Positions 7,262 through 29,136 of a stretch of 64,000 bases of DNA are shown here, piece after piece (the stretch's first letter is position 1; each line of letters starts with the position of its first letter). Origin of the DNA: an uncultured Bacteroidota bacterium (GTDB taxonomy: Bacteria; Bacteroidota; Bacteroidia; AKYH767-A; 2013-40CM-41-45); the NCBI GenBank assembly GCA_937871435.1, contig CALMQM010000103.1, positions 28,574 through 92,573 on the forward strand, read 5' to 3'. Under the pieces are notes generated by a model. That model searched no databases. It saw only the letters and a program-made list of their open reading frames with translations, and was not told the origin of the DNA. The position numbers and the translations under genes were made by a program.

Positions 7262-7320
7262 TTCCGGGTTCCATGTTCCTGGTTTCTGGTTTTGGGTTTT
7301 GTTACCCGTTTCTTTCATTA
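7262..7320. repeat. GGTTCC/GGTTTC simple-sequence tract immediately after the ispH stop
   Basis: gttccgggttccatgttcctggtttctggttttgggttttg. The same motif family occurs after the stop at 22317. Confidence 0.6.
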
Positions 7321-7324
7321 AATC

Positions 7325-7520
7325 CCTCGTCTCGCTTCACGTCCCTTGTCACTTCTTCACGTCCCTTGTCCCTCTTTCACGTCCCTTGTCCCTACTTCAC
7401 GTCCCTCGTCCCCCTTTCACGTCCCTTGTCCCTCATTCACGTCTCTCGTCCCCCTTTCACGTCCCCTGTCCCTCCTTCACGCCCCTCGTCCCTTCTTTCA
7501 CGTCCCTTGTCCCTCTCCCT
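7325..7520. repeat. about 9 tandem copies of a 20-nt minisatellite (consensus CACGTCCCTTGTCCCTCTTT)
   Basis: Contiguous 20-nt units with point variants. All three forward frames are open across it because 20 is not a multiple of 3. The inverted counterpart lies at 28935-29100. Confidence 0.85.
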
Positions 7521-7528
7521 GCATCATA

Positions 7529-7566
7529 CAAAAAAAAGACCCTCGCTGATTGCAAGGGTCTTTTTA
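7529..7566. terminator. bidirectional rho-independent terminator between ispH and gldN
   Basis: A-run, then hairpin AGACCCT-cgctgattgca-AGGGTCT, then T-run. Confidence 0.65.
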
Positions 7567-7581
7567 TATTTCCTCGGGAGA

Positions 7582-8427
7582 TTAGAATTCCCACATATCG
7601 TGTTCAAAATTGGTGATGTCGTCTTTGATGCGTTCTGCCTCGAGGAGAGCACTGAGGCCCTGGCGATAGTCAGATATCAAACGATCATACACGTTGGCTT
7701 CTTTGTAAATATAAGAGCCAAACAGACGCTTTTGAAAGATGTCATCGAATGATCTCCGTTCCGCATCATTTTGTCTGTTGAAGACTTCTGCGTTAGCAAG
7801 CAACTTACGAGCTTCAGGATAGTAGATCCAGAACAGTGGTTTCTTGATATTGCCTTCACGGACATTTCCGAATTCATCACGGTCATAAATGAGTGGTGCA
7901 ATTCCGATTATGCGAACATCCATTACTGAACGTTGTTTGTCGAAGAACCAATCTTCCTTCACGCGATAACCAATGACATTGTCACGAGAAAATTCTTTTA
8001 CGATCAGGGTATCGAATTCATCGTACGGAGGATCCGGACGTTGCATTTTTGTAGAATCAGTACGCGCACCACCACGAGCCTCAATTTCTTTCAGTGTGAT
8101 AGGCAGGGTAAACTGATCATCGATATAACCATAAGCAGTAAGAGATCCTTCTGTGATGGCATCCATCAGTACATCGATCAGATTTTTGCGGTCTTTGGTA
8201 GCATCGTGTAAAGGATATTTGAGCGGAAGATTGATCTTCTCGTTCAAGTCAATCACACGCCAAACTCTTTTAGACCACATTACATCGGCTTCACGTAAAT
8301 AAGGATACGGAATCACCTGACGGGTGACTGTATGCTCTTTTACATAAACTCCGTCGAGTACGTTCTGCGACATTGCCGCTCCTGCAAGCAGGGAAGCGAA
8401 GAATGTCATGAGAAGTCTGATTTTCAT
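7582..8427 (-). CDS. gldN: gliding motility / T9SS protein GldN (PorN)
   Basis: 281-aa periplasmic protein and the last gene of the porP-gldKLMN block. Confidence 0.75.
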   Translation of the reverse strand: MKIRLLMTFFASLLAGAAMSQNVLDGVYVKEHTVTRQVIPYPYLREADVMWSKRVWRVIDLNEKINLPLKYPLHDATKDRKNLIDVLMDAITEGSLTAYGYIDDQFTLPITLKEIEARGGARTDSTKMQRPDPPYDEFDTLIVKEFSRDNVIGYRVKEDWFFDKQRSVMDVRIIGIAPLIYDRDEFGNVREGNIKKPLFWIYYPEARKLLANAEVFNRQNDAERRSFDDIFQKRLFGSYIYKEANVYDRLISDYRQGLSALLEAERIKDDITNFEHDMWEF

Positions 8428-8448
8428 TTGATAACCTTTAGGTTGAAC

Positions 8449-10080
8449 TTATTGAATGACAAAGCTCATTGGTGATAAACTGCGGGATGACTGATCCGCA
8501 CCTGTTGCCATTTTTGCTTTGATGTATTCAAAAAACACTTTGTCTCCAGCCCTTGATTTAGCCAAGGCATCACGCATTTGTTGTGTCAACTGATTCCCCT
8601 GTGATTCGAAATCCTGTGGATCTTTTCCTTTACCGGAGATAGACATTTTGAAATTTGTGATCTTGAAGAACAATTCGAAATCGAAGCCTTCGAGCTGAGG
8701 AATCAATGTACCGGCCATCAACAGATTTTTGTTGATCGGACCGCCCTTGCTGTTGGAGATTGTTGCTACCGGATCAGGTACACGTTTCACGCGGTATTCA
8801 AAGGTACCCATTGGCATTACTTTACCACCAATTTCAGCAGACACTTTGATGTTCGCCTTACCCACACTTGAAACTGTAGCAGTATAGTGACCTCCACCCA
8901 ATGCAGAATTAGGTTTCAATGCACCACCTCCACCTTCGATACTCACTTTTACTTTATCGTTGGATACACCAGGAACTGAGATAGACATTGGGTTATCCAC
9001 ACCGATATACAACACATTCATCTTGTCGGCAGAGACAACAGAATTTGGTTTCTGAGCAACATATGACTGACTGAATGGGTAGTATTCATAGCTTCCATCC
9101 GGTTTTTTCACACGGATGACACCGCCCCATTTTTTCTCACCTTCTGAACCCGGACGATCGTTGTATTTCGCGTAACCGCCTTCAACAGGAAGAGGTTTGT
9201 CGCTACCACCACGCATTTGTTTTGAAACAGAATCGTACGTAGCACCAATGAAAACCTCAGGAGCCATAGTAGATGAAGTAGCAGACAGGAATACATCAGC
9301 CTGGTAGTCTGAACCAATCGTTACAACGGTACTGTTCGCGATGACTTTAGCATTGAGTTTATCCAACTTGATGATATTCTTATCCACAGATGAAATCAAA
9401 TCGTCGATCACTTGTGATTCCGCATTGCGGATATCACTCTGGATCTTGGTAAGAAGAGCAACTGTCGCAACAATCGGATTGTGATAGAAACTGTTCATTT
9501 CCCAGGTACGTTTTCCGTCTTCTGCTTTTACAGGATCGGAAGTATTCAGGAGAATTTCCAATTGCTTTTTGAATCCTTCTTTGGAAGCAGCTGGAACATT
9601 GGCAAGAATGGTAGTCTTGAAAGCTTCCATGTCTTTTTTAAGTTCAGATGCTTTCGCGCCTTTTCCATCTGCATTGTCGCCACACATAATGAACGTAGGT
9701 ACGTCATAATTTTCTTTTGCTTCCATTTCGCTCAGTGAAGGTACTGCAGCTCCTTTGTCAATTCCGTCCGCGTTACGAATCAGGTCTTGTTTGAGATCTT
9801 CGATCTTTTTCACAAGGTCGTTCGCGCTTTTCTTGACATTGTTTGCTTTGTCATTTACATCCTTGTACTTCACTGCATCTACTGACATCGCCTGAGCGAA
9901 GGCAGCATAGGTATTTGCATTCTTTTTGTCGATATTTTCTTTTGATAACTGGACACTATCGTTGATTGTAACGAAGGCATTGATTACTTCCTTCGTGACA
10001 TTCAGCGCCAGGAGGGCAGTCAACACGAGATACATCATGTTGATCATCTTCTGCCTGGGTGTCAATTTTCCACCTGCCAT
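8449..10080 (-). CDS. gldM: gliding motility / T9SS protein GldM (PorM)
   Basis: 543 aa with a single N-terminal transmembrane helix (MINMMYLVLTALLALNV) and a long periplasmic region. Confidence 0.8.
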   Translation of the reverse strand: MAGGKLTPRQKMINMMYLVLTALLALNVTKEVINAFVTINDSVQLSKENIDKKNANTYAAFAQAMSVDAVKYKDVNDKANNVKKSANDLVKKIEDLKQDLIRNADGIDKGAAVPSLSEMEAKENYDVPTFIMCGDNADGKGAKASELKKDMEAFKTTILANVPAASKEGFKKQLEILLNTSDPVKAEDGKRTWEMNSFYHNPIVATVALLTKIQSDIRNAESQVIDDLISSVDKNIIKLDKLNAKVIANSTVVTIGSDYQADVFLSATSSTMAPEVFIGATYDSVSKQMRGGSDKPLPVEGGYAKYNDRPGSEGEKKWGGVIRVKKPDGSYEYYPFSQSYVAQKPNSVVSADKMNVLYIGVDNPMSISVPGVSNDKVKVSIEGGGGALKPNSALGGGHYTATVSSVGKANIKVSAEIGGKVMPMGTFEYRVKRVPDPVATISNSKGGPINKNLLMAGTLIPQLEGFDFELFFKITNFKMSISGKGKDPQDFESQGNQLTQQMRDALAKSRAGDKVFFEYIKAKMATGADQSSRSLSPMSFVIQ

Positions 10081-10139
10081 AGTCGGTTTGTGTTTTGCTG
10101 GTTAAGTGTAATTGGTTAGTTGTTCTCTGGCTGCTTTGC

Positions 10140-10946
10140 TTAGCTACGCAGGGTCATTGCAGACAACATGTTGCCATAAACCGTGTTGAGCTGAGAAAGG
10201 TTCTTCGCCAATGTCGCCACTTCTTCGCGATACTTTCTTGTATCATCGAGAGAAGAATTCAGGTTAGACATAAGCTCGTTGATACCTTCATAGAAGCGGC
10301 TTGTTTGTTTGAGGTGTTCACTACTGTCCTGCAATTGCAGTTCATACACCGCATTCAAAGAAGCCAGATTCTTACCTGCAGTTACAACCTGGTCTTTATA
10401 CACTCGTACTTCTTCGGTGGAATTCGATAATGCTTCAACAGCTGAAGCAGCTTTTGTGTAAGAGCTACTGAGCTGGTCAACTGACTGAGCAGCTTTCGAT
10501 ACATTCTTCACATAATCATCTGTTGCAACAGAAGCGCTGCTCAGGTTAGCCATGGAAGCTGTATTCTCGCTGAGTGAACGAAGACCAGATCCCAAACTTT
10601 CGATAAGTTCCGGACCGATTTTCGCGTCAGACATCAGTCTGTCCAGTTGTTGTGCAACCGGATCTGTTTTTTTCTTCTTTTCCTTTTTGCCATGTGAATC
10701 ATCATCCATTCCGGCAAGTTCAGGATATACGAGGGACCAATCCACATCTTCGTGTGGTGGCTCAAATGCGGAGAAGAAGAAGATCACCGCCTCGGTTCCA
10801 AGACCTAATACCAGGAAGAATCCTGAAAAAGGCCAGTGTTGAATTTTAAAAAGGGCTCCGACGATTACAATGGATGCTCCCCATCCATATAATCTGGCCA
10901 TGAATTGTTTGAACTTCTTTCCTTGTGTTAATTCGCTAAGTCCCAT
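10140..10946 (-). CDS. gldL: gliding motility / T9SS protein GldL (PorL)
   Basis: 268 aa with two N-terminal transmembrane helices (WGASIVIVGALFKIQHW, GFFLVLGLGTEAVIFFFSAFEPP) and a coiled-coil cytoplasmic tail. Confidence 0.8.
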   Translation of the reverse strand: MGLSELTQGKKFKQFMARLYGWGASIVIVGALFKIQHWPFSGFFLVLGLGTEAVIFFFSAFEPPHEDVDWSLVYPELAGMDDDSHGKKEKKKKTDPVAQQLDRLMSDAKIGPELIESLGSGLRSLSENTASMANLSSASVATDDYVKNVSKAAQSVDQLSSSYTKAASAVEALSNSTEEVRVYKDQVVTAGKNLASLNAVYELQLQDSSEHLKQTSRFYEGINELMSNLNSSLDDTRKYREEVATLAKNLSQLNTVYGNMLSAMTLRS

Positions 10947-11063
10947 AGTTTCGAATTGATTTATTGGTTAGACGTTGATTAGTTTATCGAGGATGGTTAT
11001 TGGTCAATAGTCATACACTTAGGCAAAATGCCCGAACGGGAGGATCGGGTATTTACCGGAGAA

Positions 11064-12350
11064 TTAATAATCCGCCTTGTCGCGTCCGAGGAAACTCATC
11101 ACGCAACGGAAGCCGACATAACATTTTGCAGTATCCTGGTACTCAAAAGTACGGGAACCTGTTTGCAGATAATACATGACATCTTTCCATGAACCGCCAC
11201 GAATAACCTTCCTCTTCAAAGCAGGAGGATCGGAATCTTTCGCTTCGTATTCATAGTCCGTGCTGACATCATGTGTGAAACTATACGCAGATTCATCAAA
11301 AGCATTGCTTGTCCATTCTGACACGTTACCGGCCATACAATACAGACCGTAGTCATTTGGCCAGTAGGATGTAGCTTTTACAGTATATACACCGCCATCA
11401 TCCATGTAATTTCCGCGCATCGGTTTGAAGTTACCCAGGAAGCAACCACGGCTGTTCCGGATATACGGACCTCCCCAAGGATATGGAGACAAATCCAGTC
11501 CGCCACGAGCGGCATATTCCCATTCCGACTCTGTAGGCAAACGGAAATCCTGAACAAAAGAACCACCGTTGTCAGCAAGATAGCTGTTCAACAATTGAGT
11601 TCTCCAGATACAGAATGCACGTGCTTGTTTCCAGGAAACACCTACAACAGGATAATCATCATAGGACGGATGCCAGAAATACATTTGTGTTAAAGGCTCA
11701 TGATAAGAATACGTGTAATCATGGATCCAGGCTAAAGTGTCGGGATATACATTGATAACATCTTTCTTAATGAAGACAGACCTGTCACGCATTCCCTGCT
11801 CACGATTTTCTTTCGCTGCGGCACTGCGGAGGTCAATCCAGTAATATTCAAAATTCAGTTTACGGGTATCAATTTCTTTACGACGATAGAAACGCTCTGT
11901 TTCAGGAAGGAACAACTCGGCAAGAGTTTCTTCATTCTGATCATCATCCCACTTGATTTTCTCTCTCCAGTTGATTCGTTCACCATATTCACCTTCTTCG
12001 ATCAGGTGTTCACCACCTATTAGTCGGTGAGCCAGGGAGTCACGAACCCAATACACGAACTGGCGGTATTCGTTATTGGTGATTTCCGTATTGTCCATGT
12101 AAAATGCCGGAATCGTCACAGTTTTCGCTTGTGCAGTAATTGCATAAGGTACATCCTGATCGCTTGGTCCCATGTTATAAGAACCCGCAGGAATGTAAAC
12201 CATGCCGAACGGATCAGCCTGGTACCACTTTTCTCGATGGAGAACGCCGGTGAGTTCACCCTTGTTCCCGCTCCCGCAGCCCGCCAGGCTCAACAGGACA
12301 ATGGAATACAGAAAACCAAATTTCTTAATCCCTAAGGTCTTGAGATTCAT
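11064..12350 (-). CDS. gldK: gliding motility / T9SS lipoprotein GldK (PorK), FGE-sulfatase-like fold
   Basis: Lipobox LSLAGCGS, 428 aa, and the formylglycine-generating-enzyme-like C-terminal motif RGGSW...VGFRCV. Confidence 0.8.
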   Translation of the reverse strand: MNLKTLGIKKFGFLYSIVLLSLAGCGSGNKGELTGVLHREKWYQADPFGMVYIPAGSYNMGPSDQDVPYAITAQAKTVTIPAFYMDNTEITNNEYRQFVYWVRDSLAHRLIGGEHLIEEGEYGERINWREKIKWDDDQNEETLAELFLPETERFYRRKEIDTRKLNFEYYWIDLRSAAAKENREQGMRDRSVFIKKDVINVYPDTLAWIHDYTYSYHEPLTQMYFWHPSYDDYPVVGVSWKQARAFCIWRTQLLNSYLADNGGSFVQDFRLPTESEWEYAARGGLDLSPYPWGGPYIRNSRGCFLGNFKPMRGNYMDDGGVYTVKATSYWPNDYGLYCMAGNVSEWTSNAFDESAYSFTHDVSTDYEYEAKDSDPPALKRKVIRGGSWKDVMYYLQTGSRTFEYQDTAKCYVGFRCVMSFLGRDKADY

Positions 12351-12493
12351 TTTTTTATGAGTAATTGATGTTTCCTAAAACAATTAGCACTGCACTCAAT
12401 TAAAGCCAATTAGGCGTGACATCCTTTAACGGGTGACTACACCATTGGTTTCATCAAATCTAAGCAATCATTTCCCTCAGCACCGGGCAATAA

Positions 12494-13420
12494 TCACAGG
12501 AATCTTACATTCCTGTGGAACTGCCTTTTCACCACTTTATTGGTTTTAAAACAATATCCCAGCATCACCTCGTGCGATCCGCTGCTATATGTTTTAATAT
12601 CAGAAGTTGTTAAATCGTAAGAATATCCCAGTTTAAGATTAGGAATAATTTCTAATCCAGCCATGAGAACGATAGCATCTTGTAAACGGTATGATCCCCC
12701 AACCCAGAAACGGTTATTGATCCAAAGGTTCGCATTAAAATCCGCCTGCGTGGACACCGCGTCAGACTTCAGCATCACCATTGGTTTTAGTGTTAACGAA
12801 GAAGTGAGGTCAACATTGTATCCGGCCATCAGATAATAATGACGTGCCAGAGAGGTTGTGATATTGCTGTATTTAATATCGCCCTCTGTAAGGTGTTGAG
12901 CAGAAATACCGACATACAGTTGATCAGTATTGTAATATGCACCAAAACCTAAGTCGAAAGTACCGCCACTCACGGAATTAAGAGGAATGCTTTGGTCTCC
13001 TACATCGTTGTAAACGAATTTGGAACCATCCATTGATTTTTGGTGATAACCTAAATCTACCCCAACACCAATTCGTCCTGAACCAAGATCCGCACGGTAG
13101 GCATAAGCACCTCTGAGGTTAAGATTTTTTTCCACTCCTAAATTATCCGCTGCGTAAACCGAAAGCCCTACTGCCCCGTGTAACAGATCAAGAGGCATGT
13201 CCGCAGTGAATAACATGGTCTTTGGTTCACCACCAAAGCCTGTCCATTGGTTACGATAGAGCAAAGTAGCACAGATTGCATCATTTGAACCTGCTACTCC
13301 CGGGTTCACCGAAAGTTTGGTGAACATATTCTGACTAAACTGTGGATCCTGTTGTGCAAGAGTAGCCAGGCTACTCCCCAGAAAGGCAATAAAAAAGGCA
13401 ACCGTAAGTGTTTTACGCAT
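12494..13420 (-). CDS. PorP/SprF family T9SS outer-membrane protein
   Basis: Signature N-terminus AQQDPQFSQNMFTKLSVNPGVAGS, 308 aa, beta-barrel-like composition. It sits in the porP position upstream of gldK. Confidence 0.75.
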   Translation of the reverse strand: MRKTLTVAFFIAFLGSSLATLAQQDPQFSQNMFTKLSVNPGVAGSNDAICATLLYRNQWTGFGGEPKTMLFTADMPLDLLHGAVGLSVYAADNLGVEKNLNLRGAYAYRADLGSGRIGVGVDLGYHQKSMDGSKFVYNDVGDQSIPLNSVSGGTFDLGFGAYYNTDQLYVGISAQHLTEGDIKYSNITTSLARHYYLMAGYNVDLTSSLTLKPMVMLKSDAVSTQADFNANLWINNRFWVGGSYRLQDAIVLMAGLEIIPNLKLGYSYDLTTSDIKTYSSGSHEVMLGYCFKTNKVVKRQFHRNVRFL

Positions 13421-13616
13421 CTTCGGATTTTGTACAGAAAGCTCTTTTTTGCTTCCTAAATCAAGTTGAGCGGGTAAAGTAATGAAAAAATAAAACTATA
13501 AACAAAATTTTTTTGAGTAGTCTGTTGTTAATATTCTACCGGATTTTTTCTTCACTTTTTGACCCGAAACTTACACGAATGGGAACGACAAAAGTTACCA
13601 CAGGAAGAGAATATAA

Positions 13617-14786
13617 TCAGCTCAATTTCTGAAAAGCCTGCCACCAGCGTTCCGGCATCTCGTCGTTGCAAGCTGCCTCATAATCTTTATAGGAACAGGG
13701 TACCAAGTGGTGTTTGTGATAGCGGATCTTGTTGCCAGGATAAGGTACTTCCATCCACCAACGTTCGCTTTTTTTACTCTTGTAAAAAACAATTTCCTGC
13801 TCTGATGATTTGATATTCACTCTGTATTTTACAAATTCAGTTTTGCTCTTCAGAGGAACATCTTTTTTCCTGTTGTAATACCCGTCAATTAAATACCAAA
13901 TCATTTGCGCTGCCAAATGAGAAGTCTGGTCGTGATTGTCAAAAAGCGGATTGATTTCATAGATACCGACAGATGTCAGCTTATCACTCATGCCGGCATA
14001 GCGCAGAATCTGGCATGCTTCCTCTCCATAAAAACCATTCGGACTTGCATTTCCGTTTCCGGGAGCATCACTCTGGCGAATAGCAGTGATATCGAACGAT
14101 AATATATCCGCGTTTCGTACGATCGGTTCTACTTCTTCCATATCCCTGCGAACCTGTCCAAGTCTGTACGCATCGAAATACAATTTCTCCATCAGGTCAA
14201 TTTGCTCATGACCAACAAAATAGGTTTGATACCCGATGTTGCTGAAGTTGAACAGGAAGTTGGGTTCATGCAACACAATTTTTCCGAGATAAGAATCAGA
14301 ATTATTCGGTTCTTCAGATGAACCCAGATCAAATCTTGAATCGACCGAAACTATATTGACAGTTTCTTCCAGCTTTTGATAGGCGACATATTGCGCAAAG
14401 GTGATGTCCTGTGAGCCTCCTAAAATTACCGGCAAAACTCCTTCTTTGAATAACTCCACATGCACAGTCGACAGAGCGGCATAGGTATCTGCCAGTGTAG
14501 CACCTGTACGTAAATTTCCAAGATCAATAATTTTGTATGGATGTCTCGCCAATTTGAGCGCATACAATTTTTCACGGATAATGTCCGGGGCCCTTCCACA
14601 TCCGTCATTACGCACCGCGCCACGGTCATCTCCAACACCTATAATCGCAATGTGAGATCCACTGAAATCAGGAAATCCTCCTTCTTCCATATGCATTTCT
14701 ACAACTGAACCAAGGGAATTTTTTTGCTCAGCAAATGCACCAAACCTGTCTTTGCTCAGTGGCTGAAAGTATTCCGAGAATTCCAT
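13617..14786 (-). CDS. arginase/agmatinase/formimidoylglutamase family protein with a C-terminal extension
   Basis: Mn-binding motifs HIAIIGVGDD and DIHT-like segments in a 389-aa protein, with an extra C-terminal segment of about 80 aa. Confidence 0.5.
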   Translation of the reverse strand: MEFSEYFQPLSKDRFGAFAEQKNSLGSVVEMHMEEGGFPDFSGSHIAIIGVGDDRGAVRNDGCGRAPDIIREKLYALKLARHPYKIIDLGNLRTGATLADTYAALSTVHVELFKEGVLPVILGGSQDITFAQYVAYQKLEETVNIVSVDSRFDLGSSEEPNNSDSYLGKIVLHEPNFLFNFSNIGYQTYFVGHEQIDLMEKLYFDAYRLGQVRRDMEEVEPIVRNADILSFDITAIRQSDAPGNGNASPNGFYGEEACQILRYAGMSDKLTSVGIYEINPLFDNHDQTSHLAAQMIWYLIDGYYNRKKDVPLKSKTEFVKYRVNIKSSEQEIVFYKSKKSERWWMEVPYPGNKIRYHKHHLVPCSYKDYEAACNDEMPERWWQAFQKLS

Positions 14787-19571: not shown

Positions 19572-21068
19572 ATGGAAAGCGATAACAACAGAGTAATTGA
19601 TGAATCAAGGCAGGGTGAAGTGCTGTTGATGGAAAAGAGTCCTGGTTTCGGCAAGAAGCTCTATCTGGAGAGTTATGGATGTGCCATGAATTTTTCAGAC
19701 AGTGAAATCATTGCATCCATCATGTCCGGTATCGGCTTTGAGACAACAGCCACAACTGATGATGCCGATGTAATTTTCCTGAACACCTGTGCGATCCGTG
19801 ACAATGCTGAACAGCGAATTTGGGCACGCCTGAAAGATTTTCGTCAGAAGAAAAGAAAGAATCCGGATCTGATTGTTGGCGTTTTGGGATGCATGGCGGA
19901 GCGGATCAAGACAGAATTACTGGAAAAAGAAAAACTGGTAGATATTGTTGTGGGCCCTGACTCTTACCGCGATCTTCCGAATCTCGTAAAAGCAGCAGGC
20001 TCCGGACAAAAAGCCGTGAACACACTTCTCTCAAGAGAAGAAACCTATGCAGAAATCAGTCCGGTGCGATTGGGTTCTAATGGTATCACTGCTTTTATTT
20101 CTATTACCAGAGGATGCGACAACATGTGCGCATTTTGTGTTGTACCGTTTACCCGCGGTCGGGAGCGTAGCAGAGATCCGGAGAGTATCGTAAAAGAAGC
20201 TGCAGAATTATTCGATCAAGGTTACCGTGAGGTAACACTCCTCGGACAGAATGTAGATTCATATTTGTGGTGGGGCGGTGGTCCGAAAAAAGATCTTCCG
20301 GATGAAACAGCGCATGCGGCTCTTTCACACAGTTTGCCGGAAGAGCAGCAACAACAGTTCACCACTTTTGCGGACCTGCTTGACAAAGTTGCGCGTGTGA
20401 ACACTAAACTACGCATTCGTTTTTCCACATCTAATCCGCGCGACATGACAGATGCAGTGTTGCATGTGATGGCGCGTCACGAGAATATTGCGAAATACAT
20501 TCACCTGCCGATTCAAAGTGGCAGTACAATGATTCTTGACAAGATGAACCGTGGTTACACCCGGCAACAATACATGGATCGAATTGAATCCATCCGAAAT
20601 ATTTTACCCGGATGCAGCCTTTCTACAGATATCATCACAGGATATTGCGGAGAAACAGAAGAAGATCATGCCGAGACTTTGAGTATCATGGAATGGTCTG
20701 GTTATGATTACGCGTACATGTTTAAATATTCCGAACGCCCGGGGACATTGGCTGCAAGAAAGTATACTGATGATATTCCGGAAGAAATAAAGAGTCGGCG
20801 TTTATCGGAGATCATCAATATGCAATCGAAACTTTCGTTGGAAAGCAACAAGAAAGATCTTGGAAAATTGGTAGAAGTATTGGTTGAATCCACGTCCAAA
20901 CGTTCCGAAGATTTTTTATCAGGAAGAAGCAGTCAGGCGAAAGTAGTTGTGTTCCCCCGCAAACATTTCAAACCCGGCGACTATGTGAATGTGCGCATCA
21001 CCGACTGCACTGCCGGTACACTCATCGGTGAAGCAGAAATGGATTCGGCTGCAGATATTAATTCATAG
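19572..21068 (+). CDS. miaB: tRNA-2-methylthio-N6-dimethylallyladenosine synthase
   Basis: MTTase N-terminal motif KLYLESYGCAMN, a radical-SAM CxxxCxxC (CDNMCAFC) and a TRAM domain. The start was trimmed from the ORF-track 19503 to the ATG at 19572. Confidence 0.8.
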   Translation: MESDNNRVIDESRQGEVLLMEKSPGFGKKLYLESYGCAMNFSDSEIIASIMSGIGFETTATTDDADVIFLNTCAIRDNAEQRIWARLKDFRQKKRKNPDLIVGVLGCMAERIKTELLEKEKLVDIVVGPDSYRDLPNLVKAAGSGQKAVNTLLSREETYAEISPVRLGSNGITAFISITRGCDNMCAFCVVPFTRGRERSRDPESIVKEAAELFDQGYREVTLLGQNVDSYLWWGGGPKKDLPDETAHAALSHSLPEEQQQQFTTFADLLDKVARVNTKLRIRFSTSNPRDMTDAVLHVMARHENIAKYIHLPIQSGSTMILDKMNRGYTRQQYMDRIESIRNILPGCSLSTDIITGYCGETEEDHAETLSIMEWSGYDYAYMFKYSERPGTLAARKYTDDIPEEIKSRRLSEIINMQSKLSLESNKKDLGKLVEVLVESTSKRSEDFLSGRSSQAKVVVFPRKHFKPGDYVNVRITDCTAGTLIGEAEMDSAADINS

Positions 21069-21072
21069 CATC

Positions 21073-22317
21073 ATGACGATCAACGAAATTAAAGCGCGAT
21101 TTGGTATCATCGGCAATTCTCCGTTGCTGGAACATGCTATCAATGTAGCCAGACAAGTTGCTTCAACAGATGTTTCCATTCTGATCTTTGGAGAAAGCGG
21201 TGTGGGTAAGGAAGTATTTCCTCAAATCATCCATCAGCTGAGCGCGAGAAAACATGGAACATATATCGCTGTAAACTGTGGAGCAATTCCGGAAGGAACT
21301 ATTGATTCAGAATTATTCGGACACGAAAAGGGATCATTTACCGGAGCGCATGAAGCACGAAAAGGATATTTTGAAGTAGCCAATGGCGGTACCATTTTTC
21401 TTGATGAAGTAGGAGAATTGCCATTGAACACTCAGGTTCGATTGCTAAGAGTACTTGAGTCAGGAGAGTTTATTAAAGTCGGCTCTTCCAAATCTCAAAA
21501 AACAAATGTGCGTGTTGTTGGAGCAACAAACGTTGATCTTGCGCAGGCAATTGAACATGGAAAGTTCCGTGAAGATTTATACTACCGGTTGAATACTGTT
21601 CCGATCCGTGTCCCTCCACTTCGCGACAGAAAGGAAGACATCTTGTTGTTGTTCCGAAAATTCGCTCATGATTTCGCCGAGAGATACCGTGTACCGGCTC
21701 TGAGTCTGCAACCCGATGCACAAAAATTACTTGTTGAATACAGATGGCCGGGAAATATCCGTCAGTTGAAAAACCTGTCGGAGCAAATGTCTATCCTGGA
21801 GAAGAATCGTGAAATCAGTGCAGACACCTTACTCACTTACTTACCTCCTGCTCCACTGAGTAATCTGCCTGTGCTGTTGCGTGATGAAGCAAAAAACGGA
21901 CAGGAATTTTCTGAAAGAGAACTGTTGTACAAAGTGTTGTTTGAAATGAAGAAGGATATGAACGACATGAAATCACTTATTGGTGAAATCATGAAAGGAG
22001 CAGGAAACGATCCTTCATGGAAAGAAAGAAATGCTCACCTGATTAACACCATTCACACAGAACCTTCCTCGACTATCTTTCCAACATCCAATCCGAATGT
22101 AACCATTCAACCAAGCAGTATTCAATCCAATGTAACGGTGTCGCCGATTGAACAACACACAGAAGTGGAAGAATCATTGTCGCTTGAAGACAAGGAGAGA
22201 GAATTTATCCAAAAAGCATTGACCAAACACAAAGGCCGTAGAAAAATGGCAGCAAAAGAACTCGGTATTTCCGAACGGACTTTGTACAGGAAGATGAATG
22301 AGTATAATTTGCATTGA
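21073..22317 (+). CDS. sigma-54-dependent transcriptional activator (AAA+ plus HTH, no N-terminal sensor/receiver domain)
   Basis: Walker A GESGVGKEVF, the GAFTGA variant GSFTGA, the ESELFGHEKG sigma-54 interaction region and a C-terminal Fis-type HTH (ERTLYRKMNEYNL). The protein begins directly with the AAA+ module. Confidence 0.75.
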   Translation: MTINEIKARFGIIGNSPLLEHAINVARQVASTDVSILIFGESGVGKEVFPQIIHQLSARKHGTYIAVNCGAIPEGTIDSELFGHEKGSFTGAHEARKGYFEVANGGTIFLDEVGELPLNTQVRLLRVLESGEFIKVGSSKSQKTNVRVVGATNVDLAQAIEHGKFREDLYYRLNTVPIRVPPLRDRKEDILLLFRKFAHDFAERYRVPALSLQPDAQKLLVEYRWPGNIRQLKNLSEQMSILEKNREISADTLLTYLPPAPLSNLPVLLRDEAKNGQEFSERELLYKVLFEMKKDMNDMKSLIGEIMKGAGNDPSWKERNAHLINTIHTEPSSTIFPTSNPNVTIQPSSIQSNVTVSPIEQHTEVEESLSLEDKEREFIQKALTKHKGRRKMAAKELGISERTLYRKMNEYNLH

Positions 22318-22470
22318 GCTTTGGTTCCAGGTTCCGGGTTTCGGGTTTCGGGTTTCGGGTTTCGGGTTTCGGGTTTTTGGTTTTCCAGCCAACCAACAAC
22401 CAAAAACCCTCAACCAAAAACCAACAACCACAAACCAACAACCAACAACCAGTTTCTTGTTCCCGCTTAA
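22318..22470. repeat. heptanucleotide simple repeats (GGGTTTC)x6 followed by (CAACCAA)-type units, together forming an imperfect palindrome
   Basis: The tract starts 1 nt after the TGA of the sigma-54 activator. The ORFs on both strands across it are low-complexity artefacts. Confidence 0.8.
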
Positions 22471-22513: not shown

Positions 22514-23014
22514 ATGAAAAAAAGTTTGATCATACTTCTCTTGTTTGCGGGGTTTACATCATGCAAGGTGAATTATTCACTGAGTGGTGCATCCATTTCG
22601 CCGGATGTAAAAACTCTTACGGTGAAGTTTTTTCAGAAGACAGCTGCTCTCGGTCCGGCTTCATTGAGTCAGACTTTTACAGAAGCATTAAAAGACAAGT
22701 TTATTTCACAAACAAATCTTAGTATTGTAGACCGGGAAGGAGATCTTACGTTCGAAGGAAGTATTTCCAACTATACAATTCAGCCATTGGCAATTCAGGC
22801 TAATGAAACCGCCGCGAAAAACCGTTTGAGTATTACAGTGAATGTAAAATTCACCAATATCAAGGATGAAAAACAGAATTTCGAAACAGGATTTACCCGC
22901 TATGCGGATTTCGAAAGTTCGCAGAATATTTCCTCTGTTGAAGATCAGCTGATCAAAGAAATTGACGACCAGTTGGTTGATGATATATTTAACAAAGCAG
23001 TGATAAACTGGTAA
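22514..23014 (+). CDS. LptE-like lipoprotein (putative LPS-assembly lipoprotein)
   Basis: Lipobox FAGFTSCK in a 166-aa protein. The position after miaB and the sigma-54 activator is as conserved in Bacteroidetes. The family assignment is by recollection and not certain. Confidence 0.4.
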   Translation: MKKSLIILLLFAGFTSCKVNYSLSGASISPDVKTLTVKFFQKTAALGPASLSQTFTEALKDKFISQTNLSIVDREGDLTFEGSISNYTIQPLAIQANETAAKNRLSITVNVKFTNIKDEKQNFETGFTRYADFESSQNISSVEDQLIKEIDDQLVDDIFNKAVINW

Positions 23015-24511
23015 ATGGATCAACGTTTGTTCAAAGGATTAATGGACAGCAAACAGCTGGTTGGTAAAGAAGTACTTACTTCTTTGCAGGAACTCAGCAG
23101 GGAATATCCCTATTTTCAATCTGCCCACTTTCTTCTTGCAAAAGCATATCACGATCAGGAACATGTTCGTTACGACAAGCAATTGAAGATTGCCGCTTTG
23201 TATGCAGGTGACAGAAAAATTCTGTATGATCATTTGCATGATAAAACTTTTGTTTCCGGCAAATTCTTCAATCAAAATCAGGAAGCGGATTCCCCTTTTA
23301 TTCTGGATTCTGGTTCAACTATGATTGATGAAAATAAAAGAGAATCTGTTGCTGAAAGTGATGCCGAGGTTCATCCCTTCATCGAATCCCAGAATTACAA
23401 CACAGTGGATTTAGTCGAGAAGAGTCCTGAAGTTGAACAAATTGTTGCTAAAACTTCTGACACTTCAGCGGAAATTAAAAAGGAAATTACTTTTTCTACA
23501 GGATACACAGAAGCAATTGACATTGATTCCGAATCTTCATTTCCGGAACCTGAAAAGAAACTTGATCCAAGAGAAATAATAAAAAGAAGACTGGCCGAAA
23601 TACTAAGCCGATCACCAGAAGAAAATCCGGTTGATACCACTGCTTCTTTGGCACCTGAAATTCCAACAAGCGTTTCAATAGCGACTGAACAAAAAAATTC
23701 TGAATCTCCAATCAAACAGATACAGGAAGAAATTCCGGTTGCAGTTCATTCTATCGAGAAACAAAATGAGGAGACGGATCATGGTCTTGCTTTGGAATAT
23801 ACTGAAAAGAAAGAAGATCATTTTGTCAGAGAAGATCTCACGGCTGAGTTGAACAAACCACTTGACAATATCGAGAAGTCGGAATTGGAACATGCTCTCG
23901 AAGAAACCTTATTGCATTCATTGGAGCAGCTTCCGGTTATTGAAAAAGATAAATCCATCCCTACTCCTGTTGTTGCTGCCAATGTTGGTATGGATATTCA
24001 ACCGGAGAGTTCCAAGCGTTCATTCACTGATTGGCTGAAGCTGAAACGAACAACAAATTTTGGTTTTACGGAGGAAGTCCATGCTTATGATGGTCCTGAT
24101 TCAATCGAGAATTCAGAACCGACACAGTTGGAACAAATCCGGTCCGAACAATTTGCCGGAATCGAACAGAATATAGAATCCACTGATTCTAAAAACATTG
24201 AAAAAACAGCAGGCAACTCCGATTCAAGTGCCGCATTGATTGACAAATTCATCGCAACTGAGCCCAGGATTATCCCGTCTAAAGCAGAGTTTTTCTCTCC
24301 TGCCAGTCAGGCCAAAAAGAGTGTTGCAGAGCACGAAGATCTTGTTTCTGAAACACTTGCAAGAATCTATTTCCAACAAGGAAATCACCAAAAGGCGCGT
24401 TGGTGCTATGAAAAATTAAGCTTGCTTCATCCCGAAAAAAGCAGTTACTTTGCCGCCCTTGTCAGAGAAATCGACGAGCAACTCAATAATCTGAATAAAG
24501 AAGACCTGTAA
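23015..24511 (+). CDS. hypothetical protein with TPR-like termini and an acidic low-complexity centre
   Basis: 498 aa. TPR-like helices at both ends (AHFLLAKAYHDQEH..., ARIYFQQGNHQKARWCYEKL) flank a Glu/Ser-rich middle. The reading frame abuts secG. Confidence 0.45.
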   Translation: MDQRLFKGLMDSKQLVGKEVLTSLQELSREYPYFQSAHFLLAKAYHDQEHVRYDKQLKIAALYAGDRKILYDHLHDKTFVSGKFFNQNQEADSPFILDSGSTMIDENKRESVAESDAEVHPFIESQNYNTVDLVEKSPEVEQIVAKTSDTSAEIKKEITFSTGYTEAIDIDSESSFPEPEKKLDPREIIKRRLAEILSRSPEENPVDTTASLAPEIPTSVSIATEQKNSESPIKQIQEEIPVAVHSIEKQNEETDHGLALEYTEKKEDHFVREDLTAELNKPLDNIEKSELEHALEETLLHSLEQLPVIEKDKSIPTPVVAANVGMDIQPESSKRSFTDWLKLKRTTNFGFTEEVHAYDGPDSIENSEPTQLEQIRSEQFAGIEQNIESTDSKNIEKTAGNSDSSAALIDKFIATEPRIIPSKAEFFSPASQAKKSVAEHEDLVSETLARIYFQQGNHQKARWCYEKLSLLHPEKSSYFAALVREIDEQLNNLNKEDL

Positions 24512-24885
24512 TGTATACTGTAATTACTGTATTGATCATTTTAGCTTGTGTACTCCTTGTATTGGTGGTACTTGTACAAAATCCAAAAGGAGGCGGTATA
24601 GCATCCGGTATTATTGGCTCCAACCAATTGATGGGGGTGAAGAAAACCAGCGATTTTGTTGAAAAACTGACCTGGGGGCTTGCCTTATCCCTTGTGATAT
24701 TGTGTTTGGTGGCTAGTTTTTCCTTGCCGAATAAAGATCAACGAACAGTAGGTTCTTCTATGCAAGAGCAGATTGATGCCGGATCAACTCCTACCAAGGC
24801 TCCGGCAACATTGCCTCCGGCGCAGCAACAACCCGCACAACAACAGCCGGCTCAGCAGCAACCCGCGCAGCCGCAGCAGAAATAA
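24511..24885 (+). CDS. secG: preprotein translocase subunit SecG with a Gln/Pro-rich C-terminal tail
   Basis: Two transmembrane helices separated by a basic loop (VLVVLVQNPKGGG...) in a 124-aa protein. The tail is PAQQQPAQQQPAQQQ. Confidence 0.65.
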   Translation: MYTVITVLIILACVLLVLVVLVQNPKGGGIASGIIGSNQLMGVKKTSDFVEKLTWGLALSLVILCLVASFSLPNKDQRTVGSSMQEQIDAGSTPTKAPATLPPAQQQPAQQQPAQQQPAQPQQK

Positions 24886-24896
24886 TTTTCAATCCT

Positions 24897-24926
24897 GAAA
24901 AGCCCCTCCGCAAGAGGGGCTTTTCT
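24897..24926 (+). terminator. rho-independent terminator after secG
   Basis: Hairpin AAGCCCCTC-cgcaa-GAGGGGCTT followed by TTTCTT. Confidence 0.7.
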
Positions 24927-25155
24927 TATCTCCTATCCCTGAATTCAGAGAATATTTACTATTGAAGGAAGACAGAAAATCAGCTGAAAATGTCACGGTG
25001 TCACCTGAAAACTGACACTATTTTCAATCGGGGCGGAGAAAAGGAAATCTTGTCAGAATGCCCGCAAAACCGCGCTGCTGGCATCATTTCTGACCGTCGC
25101 GAAGCGAATCCAAATTCATCAGATCTTTTATTAACTAAATTTAAAAACATACAAA

Positions 25156-25434
25156 ATGGCTAAAGTAGCATTGAAACCGTTAGCAGACCGCGTGCTTGTT
25201 GAAGCTGCGCCTGCAGAAGAAAAAACAGCAGGAGGAATTATCATTCCGGATACTGCAAAGGAAAAACCACAGCGCGGCAAAGTAATCGCGGTAGGTACAG
25301 GTAAAAAGGATGAGCCCCTGACAGTAAAAGTTGGTGATTCTGTTCTTTACGGAAAATATGCCGGTACTGAAATTAACATCGAAGGCCGCGAATATCTTAT
25401 CATGCGCGAATCAGACATTTTCGCAGTACTGTAA
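25156..25434 (+). CDS. groES: co-chaperonin GroES
   Basis: 92 aa, with the characteristic [10 protein letters not shown]...GGIIIPD sequence. Confidence 0.9.
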
Positions 25435-25492
25435 ATCAAATCATTTTACAGAATTTACCCCTGAATCCGATTCTGTTTATTTAAAAAATTAA

Positions 25493-27145
<1,653 letters not shown>

Positions 27146-27170
27146 AAATTCCATTACCCCGTGAATTTCA

Positions 27171-27201
27171 GAGGCTGTCCGATGGACAGCCTCTTTTTTT
27201 T
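27171..27201 (+). terminator. rho-independent terminator after groEL
   Basis: Hairpin GAGGCTGTCC-gat-GGACAGCCTC followed by T8. Confidence 0.8.
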
Positions 27202-27221
27202 GAGAAAATTATATTTGTACT

Positions 27222-28043
27222 TTGAGAACGAATACCATGCGGCGGATCAACTTCCTCATTTTTATTTTAGTCTTCTTGCGCATTTCTTCAGCGCAGGGCC
27301 AGGGCTCCTTCCCGGGGATTTATCAGGGCGTGATGAAAGGAGAAAGTATTCATATTGTTATTGAGGAGGTAAGTGGTTCTTCCATCAAAGGAAGACTGAC
27401 GGATGAATCCGGCACTTTCGTACTGGAAGGCTCTATCAACGGAAATGAAATTCAGAGTGCGCGGGTGCACAGGAAATTTCATGATCAGAATTTCAGGGGA
27501 AGATTCCTGAGTGATCGTTTGACTATCAGTTTTGACCAATTGGATCTGAATACCGCCGACAGGAAACCAATATCTGTTGACTTTTACAAACAGGAAATTA
27601 TTGAACCGGTAGACAGTTCTCTCATTATTGTTTCTGACACGGTAAATAAACCGAAAGCAGAAGGATATGATGTTGTCAAACATAAACTGGATCAAAGGCT
27701 TTTCGGAAGCTGGCAATATTTTGCGAAAGATGACACACGAAAAGCTCCATTGAGTCAGAGGCAGGTGCTCACAGTTTATGCTTTTTATAAAGATGGAGAT
27801 TGTGGTACTGCAACCGGACATCCATTTTTACCGGGCAAAGATTCAATGCCGGAGGAAAAATTGATTATCCGACGCGACAAACACACATCCTGGTATACAT
27901 CAGATGATATCTTGTATTTTGTTGAAAAATCTCCTCAGGAAAAAGTCATTTACAAAGTGAAATATAAATTAGATAAAGGCAAACTGTATTTTATCAATCC
28001 GAACAAGTCGGTGATTACATTGACGAAGTATGCTGATGACTAA
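27222..28043 (+). CDS. hypothetical secreted protein
   Basis: 273-aa ORF with a signal peptide (RRINFLIFILVFLRISSAQG). No family recognised. Confidence 0.45.
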   Translation: MRTNTMRRINFLIFILVFLRISSAQGQGSFPGIYQGVMKGESIHIVIEEVSGSSIKGRLTDESGTFVLEGSINGNEIQSARVHRKFHDQNFRGRFLSDRLTISFDQLDLNTADRKPISVDFYKQEIIEPVDSSLIIVSDTVNKPKAEGYDVVKHKLDQRLFGSWQYFAKDDTRKAPLSQRQVLTVYAFYKDGDCGTATGHPFLPGKDSMPEEKLIIRRDKHTSWYTSDDILYFVEKSPQEKVIYKVKYKLDKGKLYFINPNKSVITLTKYADD

Positions 28044-28202
28044 ATCCGGAATTAATTGATCATTTTCTGATCGTCAAATTTTTCTTGAGAAAGCTTCCTT
28101 TTCAAAGACAATAAATTCTCTGAATAGTACCTGAAAAGCAATTATTTCACTCAAAAAAATCTAAGGTTTGATGAATATCTTTAGGGCAGGATAATAAACG
28201 AG

Positions 28203-28925
28203 ATGATTTTTTCAAAAATAAACCTTCAATCGGAGCTTACGCGTGAACGAAGTAAACAACAACGTTTACTGAATGAAATTTATGATATCCTGGAAGACGC
28301 GAAATCTACGGATGAAGAAATTCTTGACAGACTTCAATCAACTTCCGCGGAAAAACATCTTGGTATTCGAATTTCGGAAAAGGATAAGGACAGAATATTT
28401 TCGATTGAAGAAATAAAAACGATTTGCATCCGATACCGACTTCGCTTTCTGGATTCACATTATTTTCGATCTGAATATCCTTATGAAGCTTTAGTTCAGA
28501 TTAAACAATTTGAAAAAGATTACAGATTGAAAATCGGCCAGTTTAAAATCATCGCGCCGGATCATACATTCAATTTAGAAAATATCAACAAAGACCCTTT
28601 GTTGTTTGCACAACTAAATGATCAAACGTTTTATCTTATCCATCAATGGGGCGAAGATCTTGCCTGGTACAAAAGAATTGTATTGTGGCCTTTACAAAAT
28701 TTCCGGACTTACCTTATTTCACTTTTTCTAATTGCTACAGCTTTCGCATGTATTCTCCCCTCTTCTATCATGAACATCTGGGGTATTCAAAGTGAATTTT
28801 ATCTGAGAGCCTGGCTTACTCTCCACACTTTCATCGGAATTTTTGGACTCAGCCTCTGGATAGGAATTTCATTCGACAAAAGCTTTAGTTCAATGAGTTG
28901 GAATAGCAGGTATTTTAATTATTGA
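28203..28925 (+). CDS. hypothetical membrane protein (soluble N-domain plus two C-terminal transmembrane helices)
   Basis: 240-aa ORF whose C-terminus (LISLFLIATAFACILPSSI..., LHTFIGIFGLSLWIGISF) is hydrophobic. Confidence 0.4.
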   Translation: MIFSKINLQSELTRERSKQQRLLNEIYDILEDAKSTDEEILDRLQSTSAEKHLGIRISEKDKDRIFSIEEIKTICIRYRLRFLDSHYFRSEYPYEALVQIKQFEKDYRLKIGQFKIIAPDHTFNLENINKDPLLFAQLNDQTFYLIHQWGEDLAWYKRIVLWPLQNFRTYLISLFLIATAFACILPSSIMNIWGIQSEFYLRAWLTLHTFIGIFGLSLWIGISFDKSFSSMSWNSRYFNY

Positions 28926-28934
28926 TACTTTATG

Positions 28935-29100
28935 AAGGGACGAGGGACGGGAAAGAGTGACGAGGGACGGGAAAGAGTGACGAGGGACATGTAAGAGTGA
29001 CGAGGGACGGGAAATGGGGACGGGGGACGGGAAAGAGTGACAAAGGACAAGAAAGAGTTACGAGGGACGGGAAATGGGGACGAAGGAGGTGAAGGAGGAA
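28935..29100. repeat. about 8 tandem copies of a 20-nt minisatellite (GTGACGAGGGACGGGAAAGA), related to and inverted relative to the array at 7325-7520
   Basis: Contiguous 20-nt units rich in GAGGGAC/GGGA. The array lies between the convergent ends of the 240-aa gene (+) and GH92 (-). The minus-strand ORF 28930-29136 across it was rejected. Confidence 0.85.
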
Positions 29101-29136
29101 ACAGGCAACATCAACCCGAAACACGAAACCCATCAA

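Follow-up and report, generated by a model that had tools for sequence, protein, structure and literature searches.

What are the two arrays of 20-nt tandem repeats that lie at two gene junctions in a 64,000-nt stretch of contig CALMQM010000103.1 from an uncultured Bacteroidota bacterium (the window, by which we mean the whole stretch analysed), and does anything maintain them there? We found that both are real, related, non-coding minisatellites derived from heptads, and we hold with moderate confidence that they are hypervariable members of the known class of long intergenic heptamer simple sequence repeats (SSRs), generated by slippage, nearly neutral in their sequence and filtered in their strand polarity by transcription. 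The arrays fit this class in every respect tested save their 20-nt compound unit, and in themselves they are ordinary: tandem repeats of this heptamer-derived, intergenic sort have been known since the short tandemly repeated repetitive (STRR) sequences of cyanobacteria.

The two arrays and their gene junctions

The two arrays occupy the following positions:

7323 to 7519, no strand: array 1, about 9 units of CACGTCCCTTGTCCCTCTTT, one of them 21 nt long
28936 to 29100, no strand: array 2, about 7-8 units of GTGACGAGGGACGGGAAAGA

An earlier note on this DNA had described two related 20-nt arrays in inverted orientation, and Tandem Repeats Finder (TRF), the agreement of the two consensus sequences and a pattern search all bear this out. 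TRF placed array 1 at 7323-7515 with a period of 20, 9.0 copies and 82% matches (88% at period 40), and array 2 at 28939-29087 with a period of 20, 6.8 copies and 80% matches (87% at period 60). The consensus of array 1 on the plus strand is the C/T-rich CACGTCCCTTGTCCCTCTTT, and that of array 2, which is G/A-rich on the plus strand, becomes CCCGTCCCTCGTCACTCTTT after reverse complementation; the two agree at 17 of 20 positions. Read on the G strand, the repeat units are GGGACAAGGGACGTGAAAGA and, in array 2, GTGACGAGGGACGGGAAAGA, and the plus-strand composition is C 0.49 and G 0.10 in array 1, and G 0.47 and C 0.10 in array 2. When up to three mismatches were allowed, a 17-mer of array 1 matched nine times in array 1 (plus strand), four times in array 2 (minus strand) and nowhere else in the window, where the shuffle expectation was 0.04, and a two-unit core pattern matched seven times in the window with none expected. 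Within the 20-nt unit we recognised two YGTCCCT heptads and a 6-nt T-rich linker (7+7+6): from core to core the distance is 7 or 13 nt, TRF also lists a period of 7 for array 2 (62% matches), and the CGTCCC..GTC core is better conserved than the linker. This substructure, the GGTTYC leaders of both junctions and a third repeat site at 22318-22451 (site 3) add to what the earlier note had seen. Both arrays were identical in independent metagenome or metagenome-assembled genome (MAG) assemblies, nine for each array, retrieved through Logan, ENA and NCBI, which excludes assembly artefacts, and by TRF and sequence inspection their units run contiguously head to tail without spacers. Array 1 (7323-7515) has in addition a higher-order 40-nt structure in which the units alternate T and C at unit positions 10 and 16, suggesting that two-unit blocks were the latest amplification step; array 2 likewise scores best at period 60.

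Around the arrays, the two junctions are made up as follows:

6416 to 7261, plus strand: ispH, 4-hydroxy-3-methylbut-2-enyl diphosphate reductase, the left gene of junction 1 (open reading frame (ORF), PF02401 LYTB)
7262 to 7301, plus strand: leader 1, heptads of the GGTTYCN type following immediately on the ispH stop codon, richer in G than in C on the ispH sense strand
7293 to 7318, plus strand: weak terminator-like hairpin TGGGTTTTGTTACCCG with a T-rich tail (consensus scan, RNA fold)
7533 to 7565, no strand: strong, GC-rich intrinsic-terminator hairpin of 14 pairs, stem 7538-7546 / 7552-7560
7582 to 8427, minus strand: gldN, gliding motility and type IX secretion system, the right gene of junction 1, with its stop at 7582 (ORF, PF19841 GldN)
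28203 to 28925, plus strand: conserved hypothetical gene of 240 aa, the left gene of junction 2 (ORF, gene call in 22 contigs)
29101 to 29136, minus strand: leader 2, a run of GGGTTTCGTGTTTCGGGTT type that follows immediately on the GH92 stop codon, richer in G than in C on the GH92 sense strand
29137 to 32112, minus strand: GH92 alpha-mannosidase-family gene of 991 aa, the right gene of junction 2 (ORF, PF17678 and PF07971 among others)

Both array junctions are convergent, ispH(+)|gldN(-) for array 1 and 240-aa hypothetical(+)|GH92(-) for array 2, a placement that had been claimed before and that the ORF calls and Pfam matches confirm. PF02401 LYTB was found on the identical IspH protein in 23 contigs and homologs were retrieved, and the 240-aa hypothetical protein has 542 full-length homologs and gave no match in a Pfam search. 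Array 2 begins 11 nt past the stop of the 240-aa gene, and array 1 sits 63 nt past the gldN stop in the gldN sense direction. Alignment of the two loci revealed a leader of roughly 50 nt plus bricks, in the same order and orientation at both. The GC skew is +0.26 in leader 1 and +0.53 in leader 2, and in dinucleotide shuffles leader 1 proved similar to leader 2 at p = 0.0055 and to site 3 at p < 0.0005; the similarity between leaders is carried by the GGTTYC heptads, and the non-heptad part reaches p = 0.053. Beyond array 1, the bidirectional terminator hairpin that had been proposed was also recovered: the 14-pair hairpin at 7533-7565, 17 nt from the gldN stop, has an A-run before it and a T-run after it and is therefore usable in both directions. 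A hairpin scan and RNA folding gave no comparable intrinsic-terminator hairpin at junction 2.

The earlier note had raised the possibility that copy number varies between strains, and such variation was observed at both arrays. At the related locus L135, array 2 is shorter by exactly one unit and otherwise identical, and in the strain represented by L128, whose flanking genes are 98.6% identical, junction 1 has one array unit fewer and one leader heptad (+7 nt) more. This gain and loss of whole units makes both arrays variable-number tandem repeats (VNTRs), usable for strain typing of this uncultured Bacteroidia population. Substitutions were counted in the L128 pair: within array 1, 14 of 177 aligned sites differ (7.9%), and at the 4-fold degenerate sites of six flanking genes the count is 54 of 693 (7.8%), while the segment comprising leader and terminator differs at only 1 of 123 sites (p = 0.001) and the hairpin at 7533-7565 is 100% conserved. 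Thus the array sequence drifts at the neutral, synonymous rate, and its non-repeat neighbours are constrained.

More distant relatives carry other repeats at the same junctions. The nearest IspH relatives are only 76% identical; the host, which has gld and carotenoid genes, belongs to an isolated and uncultured lineage of Bacteroidia. In L129 the ispH|gldN gap is occupied by GAACCYT heptads together with small hairpin repeats, and in L130 by AGTTATT followed by CTAACAA/CCAACCA heptads and then a terminator; in a 74% relative, the gap between the hypothetical gene and GH92 contains GGGTTYC and GAGTTAT heptads after the stop of the hypothetical gene and GTGAAGA after the GH92 stop. GTCCCT itself was absent from the orthologous junctions of L129 and L130 (ispH|gldN) and of L146 and L149 (hypothetical|GH92), and a 56% relative has a gap of 5 nt between the hypothetical gene and GH92, with no repeat. 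In relatives of 74-76% identity, the position of the repeat thus persists while its sequence turns over completely. As a separate observation, some relatives lose synteny exactly at the repeat-bearing junctions: in the 73% relatives (L131 and L132) a SprB-like giant gene lies 13 nt after ispH, and in L149, a 76% relative, a gene with an ORF6N domain is inserted after the 240-aa gene; there is no more than a hint here that repeat-bearing gaps are points of rearrangement.

A widespread repeat family and its strand polarity

The distribution of the repeat was examined by scanning one genome per species with the pattern GTCCCTNGTC-N10-GTCCCTNGTC, which imposes the 20-nt register and leaves free the completion of the second heptad (GTC, then CCT). 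At least 117 genome loci in many phyla matched, where we estimate a chance expectation of about 17 from 18 specified bases and 1.2e12 positions, and about 100 of the matches listed lie inside TRF arrays. Among these listed matches, the pure heptads GGGACTA, GGGACTG, AGGGACA and GTCCCTC occur in Acidobacteria, a cyanobacterium, Bacteroidales and Sorangium, the cyanobacterial GGGACTA array (L013) having the core of the window unit, and CGTCCCTCGTCCCT with a T-rich linker occurs in Bacteroidales and Lentimicrobium MAGs; units measure 19-22 nt in relatives. The arrays of Bacteroidales and Lentimicrobium MAGs are embedded in heptad mosaics, and within Bacteroidales MAGs the doublet is one module amid mosaics of other heptads (GGGCWCA, TTCTAAT, TAGAAGA, GCGGATT). 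The window's own unit subtype was not found in a Joint Genome Institute (JGI) metagenome scan, which returned only three unrelated arrays, and a scan of viral contigs gave one chance match, inside coding sequence.

Two groups of loci deserve mention in their own right. Verrucomicrobia MAGs (L034, L049, L065, L075, L094, L100 and L122) carry 20-nt CTGTCCCTTGTCCGAAGAGC arrays of 6-21 copies and 93-100% matches, several of them at contig ends, which share a GTCCCTTGTCC core with the window unit. The Bacteroidales MAG JADJEQ01 (Bjer_18-Q3-R1-45_BAT3C.220) has a composite element common to L036, L056, L060, L078, L079, L114 and L119, in the order GGGCWCA heptads, GGCATGGTAGAATT, TCTAATK heptads, GGTTTC, (GTCCCTCGTCCC+N8)x2 and GCACAGG heptads; it is a dispersed repeat family of heptad modules that contains the GTCCCT doublet.

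Gene context was then taken, with crude longest-ORF gene calls, from the low-GC loci L011-L127 of the matches listed, together with the window and its relatives, the baseline coming from the same loci. The earlier note had placed each of the two arrays at a convergent junction; in the wider family this placement is a weak trend and not a rule, since array-bearing gaps are convergent in 27% of cases versus 12% in the baseline (p = 0.04), and most arrays (67%) lie between co-directional genes. Divergent gaps account for 7% versus 14% (2/30, not significant).

A far stronger regularity concerned the strand. For TRF arrays of period 5-25 located within 60 nt downstream of a stop codon, the G-rich strand of the repeat was the gene's sense strand 50 times out of 60 (p = 1.6e-7), 33 times out of 40 when genes of at least 200 aa were considered, and 16 times versus 3 when collapsed per genome. 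The rule held for GGGAC-type units (15/17) and for all other units (35/43), among the latter units that do not form G-quadruplexes (G4s), such as GTTATTA, GAGTTAT and GTGAAGA; where the stop-adjacent arrays are G4-capable, the G-runs lie on the sense strand by 23 to 3. Upstream of start codons there was no polarity bias (8 vs 13), and repeat-free DNA after stop codons had no skew (mean 0.015, n=167). The stop-adjacent arrays are altogether purine-rich on the sense strand (A 0.30, G 0.35, C 0.14, T 0.20). All five stop-adjacent blocks of the window obey the rule: the G-rich strand of array 2 coincides with the sense strand of the 240-aa gene and that of array 1 with the gldN sense strand, and the two leaders and the site 3 block have G over C on the sense strands of ispH, GH92 and a sigma-54 activator. 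Each convergent junction hence consists of two back-to-back blocks, each polarised by its own gene, with opposite polarities within 200 nt. The inverted orientation of the two arrays has no meaning as a pair; it arises because the G-rich strand of each simply follows the sense strand of its adjacent gene, as it does in 50 of 60 cases overall.

Several origins of this polarity were considered and set aside. Had it been a by-product of the replication strand, it would not exceed the 60% leading-strand bias of genes, as 50/60 does (p = 9e-5), and the opposite polarities within 200 nt at each junction likewise reject it. Transcription-coupled deamination is an unlikely cause, the sense strand being A-rich and not T-rich and repeat-free DNA being unskewed. 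A further idea was that the gene bearing the leader always has the C-rich strand as its sense strand, which would make a dedicated Rho utilization (rut) site for that gene. As a general rule it was rejected because co-directional gaps were C-sense in 6 cases and G-sense in 14, and the opposite stop-adjacent rule, with its G-rich sense strand, contradicts it as well.

Intergenic heptamers of this kind have a long history. STRR sequences are simple 7-mers such as CCCCAGT of heterocystous cyanobacteria, the historical prototype of the class, and are useful for strain fingerprinting; Mazel et al. reportedly described such heptanucleotide sequences in 1990 from Calothrix and Nostoc. The arrays resemble STRRs as tandem intergenic heptamers with different heptamers side by side, and differ from them by the 20-nt super-unit. 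Units of the class measure 5-11 nt, typically 7; the arrays have 20-nt units that are built of heptads, and the leaders and site 3 are true heptamer runs. As far as Mrazek 2007 is related in PMC4679880, heptanucleotides are the most over-represented long SSRs in bacteria and polymerase slippage was proposed for their origin. Rehm 2015 (PMC4692102) described non-coding GGGAATC repeats in Xanthomonas and GGGGAYT repeats in Nostoc which lie within 50 bp of stop codons on the coding strand, are under-represented between divergent ORFs, vary between relatives at conserved positions and are mostly transcribed; their G strands form G4s and their C strands i-motifs in vitro, and a regulatory role could not be identified (PMC4692102). 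Like these heptamers, the arrays are head-to-tail and strongly non-coding, with G3 tracts about 7 nt apart, variable at a kept position, with sense-strand G polarity near stops, in-silico G4 and i-motif propensity and no assigned function. Unlike them, the unit here is a 20-nt compound of two GGGACNA heptads and a linker with longer G4 loops (4-10-4), a GGTTYC leader module accompanies the arrays, the bacterium comes from an uncultured Bacteroidia lineage, and the G4 propensity is in silico only. The polarity rule extends the Xanthomonas/Nostoc observation to Bacteroidota and to units that do not form G4s, and by including such units it narrows the explanations for why bacteria keep these repeats.

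Within the same phylum, MacGregor 2015 (PMC4679880) reported heptamer assemblages in intergenic regions of Gramella forsetii, Aequorivita sublithincola and Elizabethkingia anophelis, which are absent from the same junction in close relatives and cause assembly breaks. That work centred on TAACTGA repeats, mostly just upstream of start codons, for which a translational role was proposed (PMC4679880). Both sets of repeats are mosaics of heptamer runs within one gap; the arrays here, in contrast, lie at 3' ends and are based on GGGAC and GGTTYC. The earlier note would have given up its view if the two arrays had shared no core beyond composition, or if the units had proved a ubiquitous known element with no positional bias. 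The shared core is real, and the units do belong to a widespread, described class, yet this class has a bias of position and polarity.

Weighing the explanations

According to the reading that we favour, the gap behind a stop codon would be filled by a modular patch in which a leader of GGTTYC heptads is followed by bricks of the 20-mer, each array forming one block. Slipped-strand mispairing or unequal recombination in the most permissive DNA, that downstream of genes, would create such arrays and alter them; they would have no sequence-specific function, with selection acting on polarity only. Rut sites, at which Rho loads, are long stretches of C-rich, G-poor, unstructured RNA, and the filter on polarity is probably that an RNA of this kind is tolerated only where a sense transcript may end. 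Read-through from ispH into array 1, or from GH92 into array 2, would give C-rich RNA and be terminated by Rho before the convergent gene, so that the arrays may passively hinder antisense transcripts into gldN and the 240-aa gene. Composition is in keeping with this. No other windows of the 64 kb have so extreme an excess of C over G on the respective strand as the arrays (190 and 150 nt, C 0.47-0.49, G 0.10), their C-strand RNAs are unstructured (fold z = -1.3 for array 1 and -0.2 for array 2), and the read-through RNA from ispH and GH92 fits rut composition, which calls for at least about 70-80 nt of C-rich, G-poor, unstructured RNA downstream of a translated region. A C-strand RNA of 150-190 nt downstream of a stop codon thus resembles a rut site, though tandem repeats are not usual in rut sites and the sense RNA of the family is mostly G-rich and hence is not a rut for the adjacent gene.

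A number of points weigh against this reading. From the polarity rule itself it is evident that these repeats are subject to selection or to a strongly asymmetric mechanism. The gene calls behind the rule are crude longest-ORF calls, and the loci were ascertained with the GTCCCT pattern. That repeats are kept at both junctions at only 74-76% protein identity could mean something beyond tolerance. The neutrality test compares one strain pair over a repeat alignment that is inherently ambiguous, a part for Rho is suggested by composition only, and the 23-to-3 orientation of G4-capable arrays fits a structural role as well as it fits avoidance of Rho. In addition, different phyla have a GGGAC-type heptad in common, the leader is shared by both window loci, and the seven JADJEQ01 loci with one element imply that copying between loci occurs and that in-situ slippage is not the sole process.

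A positively selected polar barrier acting through Rho, G4s or both is possible, at a rather low probability. Its main form, that the arrays are selected barriers or insulators in which C-rich read-through RNA loads Rho and protects the convergent gene from antisense transcripts and collisions, we regard as unlikely, though it survives better than the other alternatives. Function would here depend on strand composition alone, so that the sequence could turn over freely. Several observations are compatible with it: on the relevant strand the arrays are the most C-rich, G-poor and unstructured stretches of the window, junction 2 has no intrinsic terminator, the polarity rule puts C-rich antisense RNA next to gene ends, convergent gaps are modestly enriched (27% vs 12%, p = 0.04), and repeats persist at the same junctions despite turnover. 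However, two thirds of the family lie between co-directional genes, with no obvious target to shield, the 56% relative has a 5-nt gap without a repeat at junction 2, and the neutral substitution rate means no constraint, although a function of composition alone would tolerate most C/T changes. The general form of the idea, in which strand-asymmetric blocks at gene ends would serve as sequence-agnostic, selected polar transcription barriers in Bacteroidota and other phyla, is somewhat less likely still. In this form the antisense transcript of each block, being pyrimidine-rich, would load Rho, and/or its sense strand would form G4s or R-loops; convergent genes would be insulated by two back-to-back blocks, and slippage could replace the sequence at will. 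If true, it would explain positional persistence with complete sequence turnover and give the long-unexplained heptamer repeats of bacteria a function. The polarity rule makes a Rho-based or transcription-based explanation directly testable. The earlier note had suggested insulators; neutral drift and replacement by unrelated repeats argue against a sequence-specific insulator or protein-binding array.

G4 or i-motif elements we consider improbable as an explanation. On this view four G3 tracts per two units would fold, and quadruplexes in the non-template DNA or in the 3' untranslated region RNA of gldN and the 240-aa gene would make polymerase pause, favour R-loops or shield the 3' end of the mRNA against exonucleases. 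The G4Hunter maxima of the arrays (1.88 for array 1, 2.12 for array 2) exceed all others in the window, both arrays are tiled by G3 motifs whose loops measure up to 12 nt, and G4-aware folding predicts two to three three-layer quadruplexes per G-strand RNA; G4-capable arrays are moreover oriented 23 to 3, and related heptamers of the same polarity form G4s and i-motifs in vitro (PMC4692102). Yet canonical G4 motifs, with loops of up to 7 nt, number one in array 2 and none in array 1, the loops being 4-10-4, and the predicted stability is not better than that of composition-matched shuffles (z = -0.5 and -1.6). The polarity rule also holds outside the GGGAC family (35/43), including units unable to form G4s, the replacement repeats of relatives are mostly not G4-prone, and Rehm et al. 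found no regulatory role (PMC4692102). A pairing in trans of the C-rich transcript of one locus with the G-rich transcript of the other would be pure speculation.

Copying of a mobile or dispersing composite element of leader and bricks would account for the shared bricks and leader in the same order and orientation (p = 0.0055), and the seven JADJEQ01 loci with one composite element show an analogous case, as does BrickBuilt, a transposable element of the miniature inverted-repeat type (MITE) in Porphyromonas gingivalis (Klein 2015, PMC4596501). BrickBuilt consists of 23-nt spacer-less bricks with a leader and a tail, is always intergenic, has IS5-type terminal inverted repeats (TIRs), varies in brick number and is present in about 19 copies per genome; some positions of the brick are conserved and others variable (PMC4596501). 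The likeness extends to the Bacteroidota host, the spacer-less bricks of about 20 nt, the adjacent leader, the intergenic location and the variable brick number. The TIRs and the tail are absent here, however, and the brick is unrelated to AGAYCATARTATCCTCTCRTRTG. No TIRs or target-site duplications flank either array, the only flanking inverted repeat being the terminator hairpin; there is no enrichment of the IS5-type TIR motif in the window; a tail is lacking, only 11 nt separating the end of array 2 from a stop codon; no transposase lies nearby; the leader similarity is one of GGTTYC heptads that also stand alone at site 3, with p = 0.053 for the non-heptad part; and there are two copies in 64 kb, to which the metagenome scan added none. 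A mobile origin is thus distinctly improbable.

Even less probable are platforms for a sequence-specific DNA-binding protein, whether iteron-like, nucleoid-organising or acting as a fork barrier, for which 20-bp spacing would place the sites on one face of the helix. The regular 20-nt period, the better conservation of the CGTCCC..GTC core than of the linker and the recurrence of a doublet with a variable linker in several Bacteroidales genomes could be taken to favour such platforms. Against them stand neutral substitution, complete replacement at orthologous junctions, units of 19-22 nt in relatives, and a polarity that follows the adjacent gene and not chromosomal direction. No rep or partition gene lies nearby and no plasmid matched, and with ispH, gldN, the hypothetical gene and GH92 as neighbours, iterons of a plasmid origin were likewise rejected. 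The replication role raised in the earlier note found no evidence in GC skew, which across the window merely follows the direction of the genes and points to neither an origin nor a terminus of replication between the arrays.

Translation of the arrays, as repetitive C-terminal extensions or small repetitive proteins, can practically be dismissed: ORFs do run through them (67-177 aa in array 1, 43-68 aa in array 2) and all three frames of the C-rich strand are open, but C/T-rich composition is what keeps them open, the stop codons of ispH and GH92 come upstream of the arrays, gldN is overlapped in antisense by the 177-aa ORF, one unit is 21 nt long, the strain indels of 20 and 7 nt would shift the frame, no Pfam match was obtained on the arrays and independent gene callers call nothing there. 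The earlier claim that a 20-nt period rules out coding was right as to non-coding, which the 21-nt unit, the indels and the lack of Pfam matches and gene calls support, and incomplete as to the reason, the period alone being insufficient.

Known repeat and RNA classes were also compared. The arrays are not a clustered regularly interspaced short palindromic repeat (CRISPR) locus, as had been noted, having contiguous units without spacers and no match to a CRISPR family. Repetitive extragenic palindromic (REP) elements and known RNA families were ruled out by structure and by Rfam scans: the unit has no internal palindrome and lacks the stem-loop of REPs and bacterial interspersed mosaic elements (BIMEs), only site 3 forming a hairpin; with Rfam 15, only a tRNA at 752-823 reaches the gathering score in the window, with no match on the arrays; and in permissive scans the matches were generic, sub-threshold hairpin matches that fell on the terminator and the site 3 hairpin but not on the arrays.

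The third repeat site and the surroundings of junction 1

Outside the two junctions, the repeat modules of the window recur at one further site:

20989 to 22317, plus strand: sigma-54-dependent transcriptional activator, the gene upstream of site 3 (Pfam PF00158, PF25601, PF02954)
22318 to 22383, plus strand: site 3 block A, GGTTCC and GGTTTCG heptads (TRF about 6.7 copies, lag-7 periodicity)
22389 to 22451, plus strand: site 3 block B, about 9 CAACCAA heptads with zero G (TRF)

No further copies of the array, leader or site 3 modules were found within the 64-kb window. At junction 1, the weak hairpin at 7293-7318 is possibly an ispH terminator placed before array 1; the number of hairpins returned by the consensus scan that includes it is not above shuffle expectation. 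The arms of the strong hairpin at 7538-7560 (AGACCCTCGC / GCAAGGGTCT) resemble the IS5-type TIRs of P. gingivalis MITEs (GAGACCTTCGCA / TGCAAAGGTCTC), a likeness that is probably coincidence, the IS5-type TIR motif occurring at chance frequency in the window. Within 4257-8427 of the window, and with L001-L009 and L128-L130 also covered, a carotenoid cluster of phytoene desaturase, phytoene synthase and lycopene cyclase genes lies directly upstream of ispH and faces the gldN-gldM-gldL gliding and type IX secretion operon, an order that is kept in 76%-identical relatives.

Site 3 has the same module as both leaders in its block A, which begins right after the stop of the sigma-54 activator and contains a canonical G3N4 quadruplex motif at 22336-22359. 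Block B ends 63 nt before the ATG of the next gene (22514). The two blocks pair with each other in an interrupted hairpin of about 140 nt at 22316-22455 (-52.1 kcal/mol, z = -4.2), and G4-aware folding favours this hairpin over the G4.

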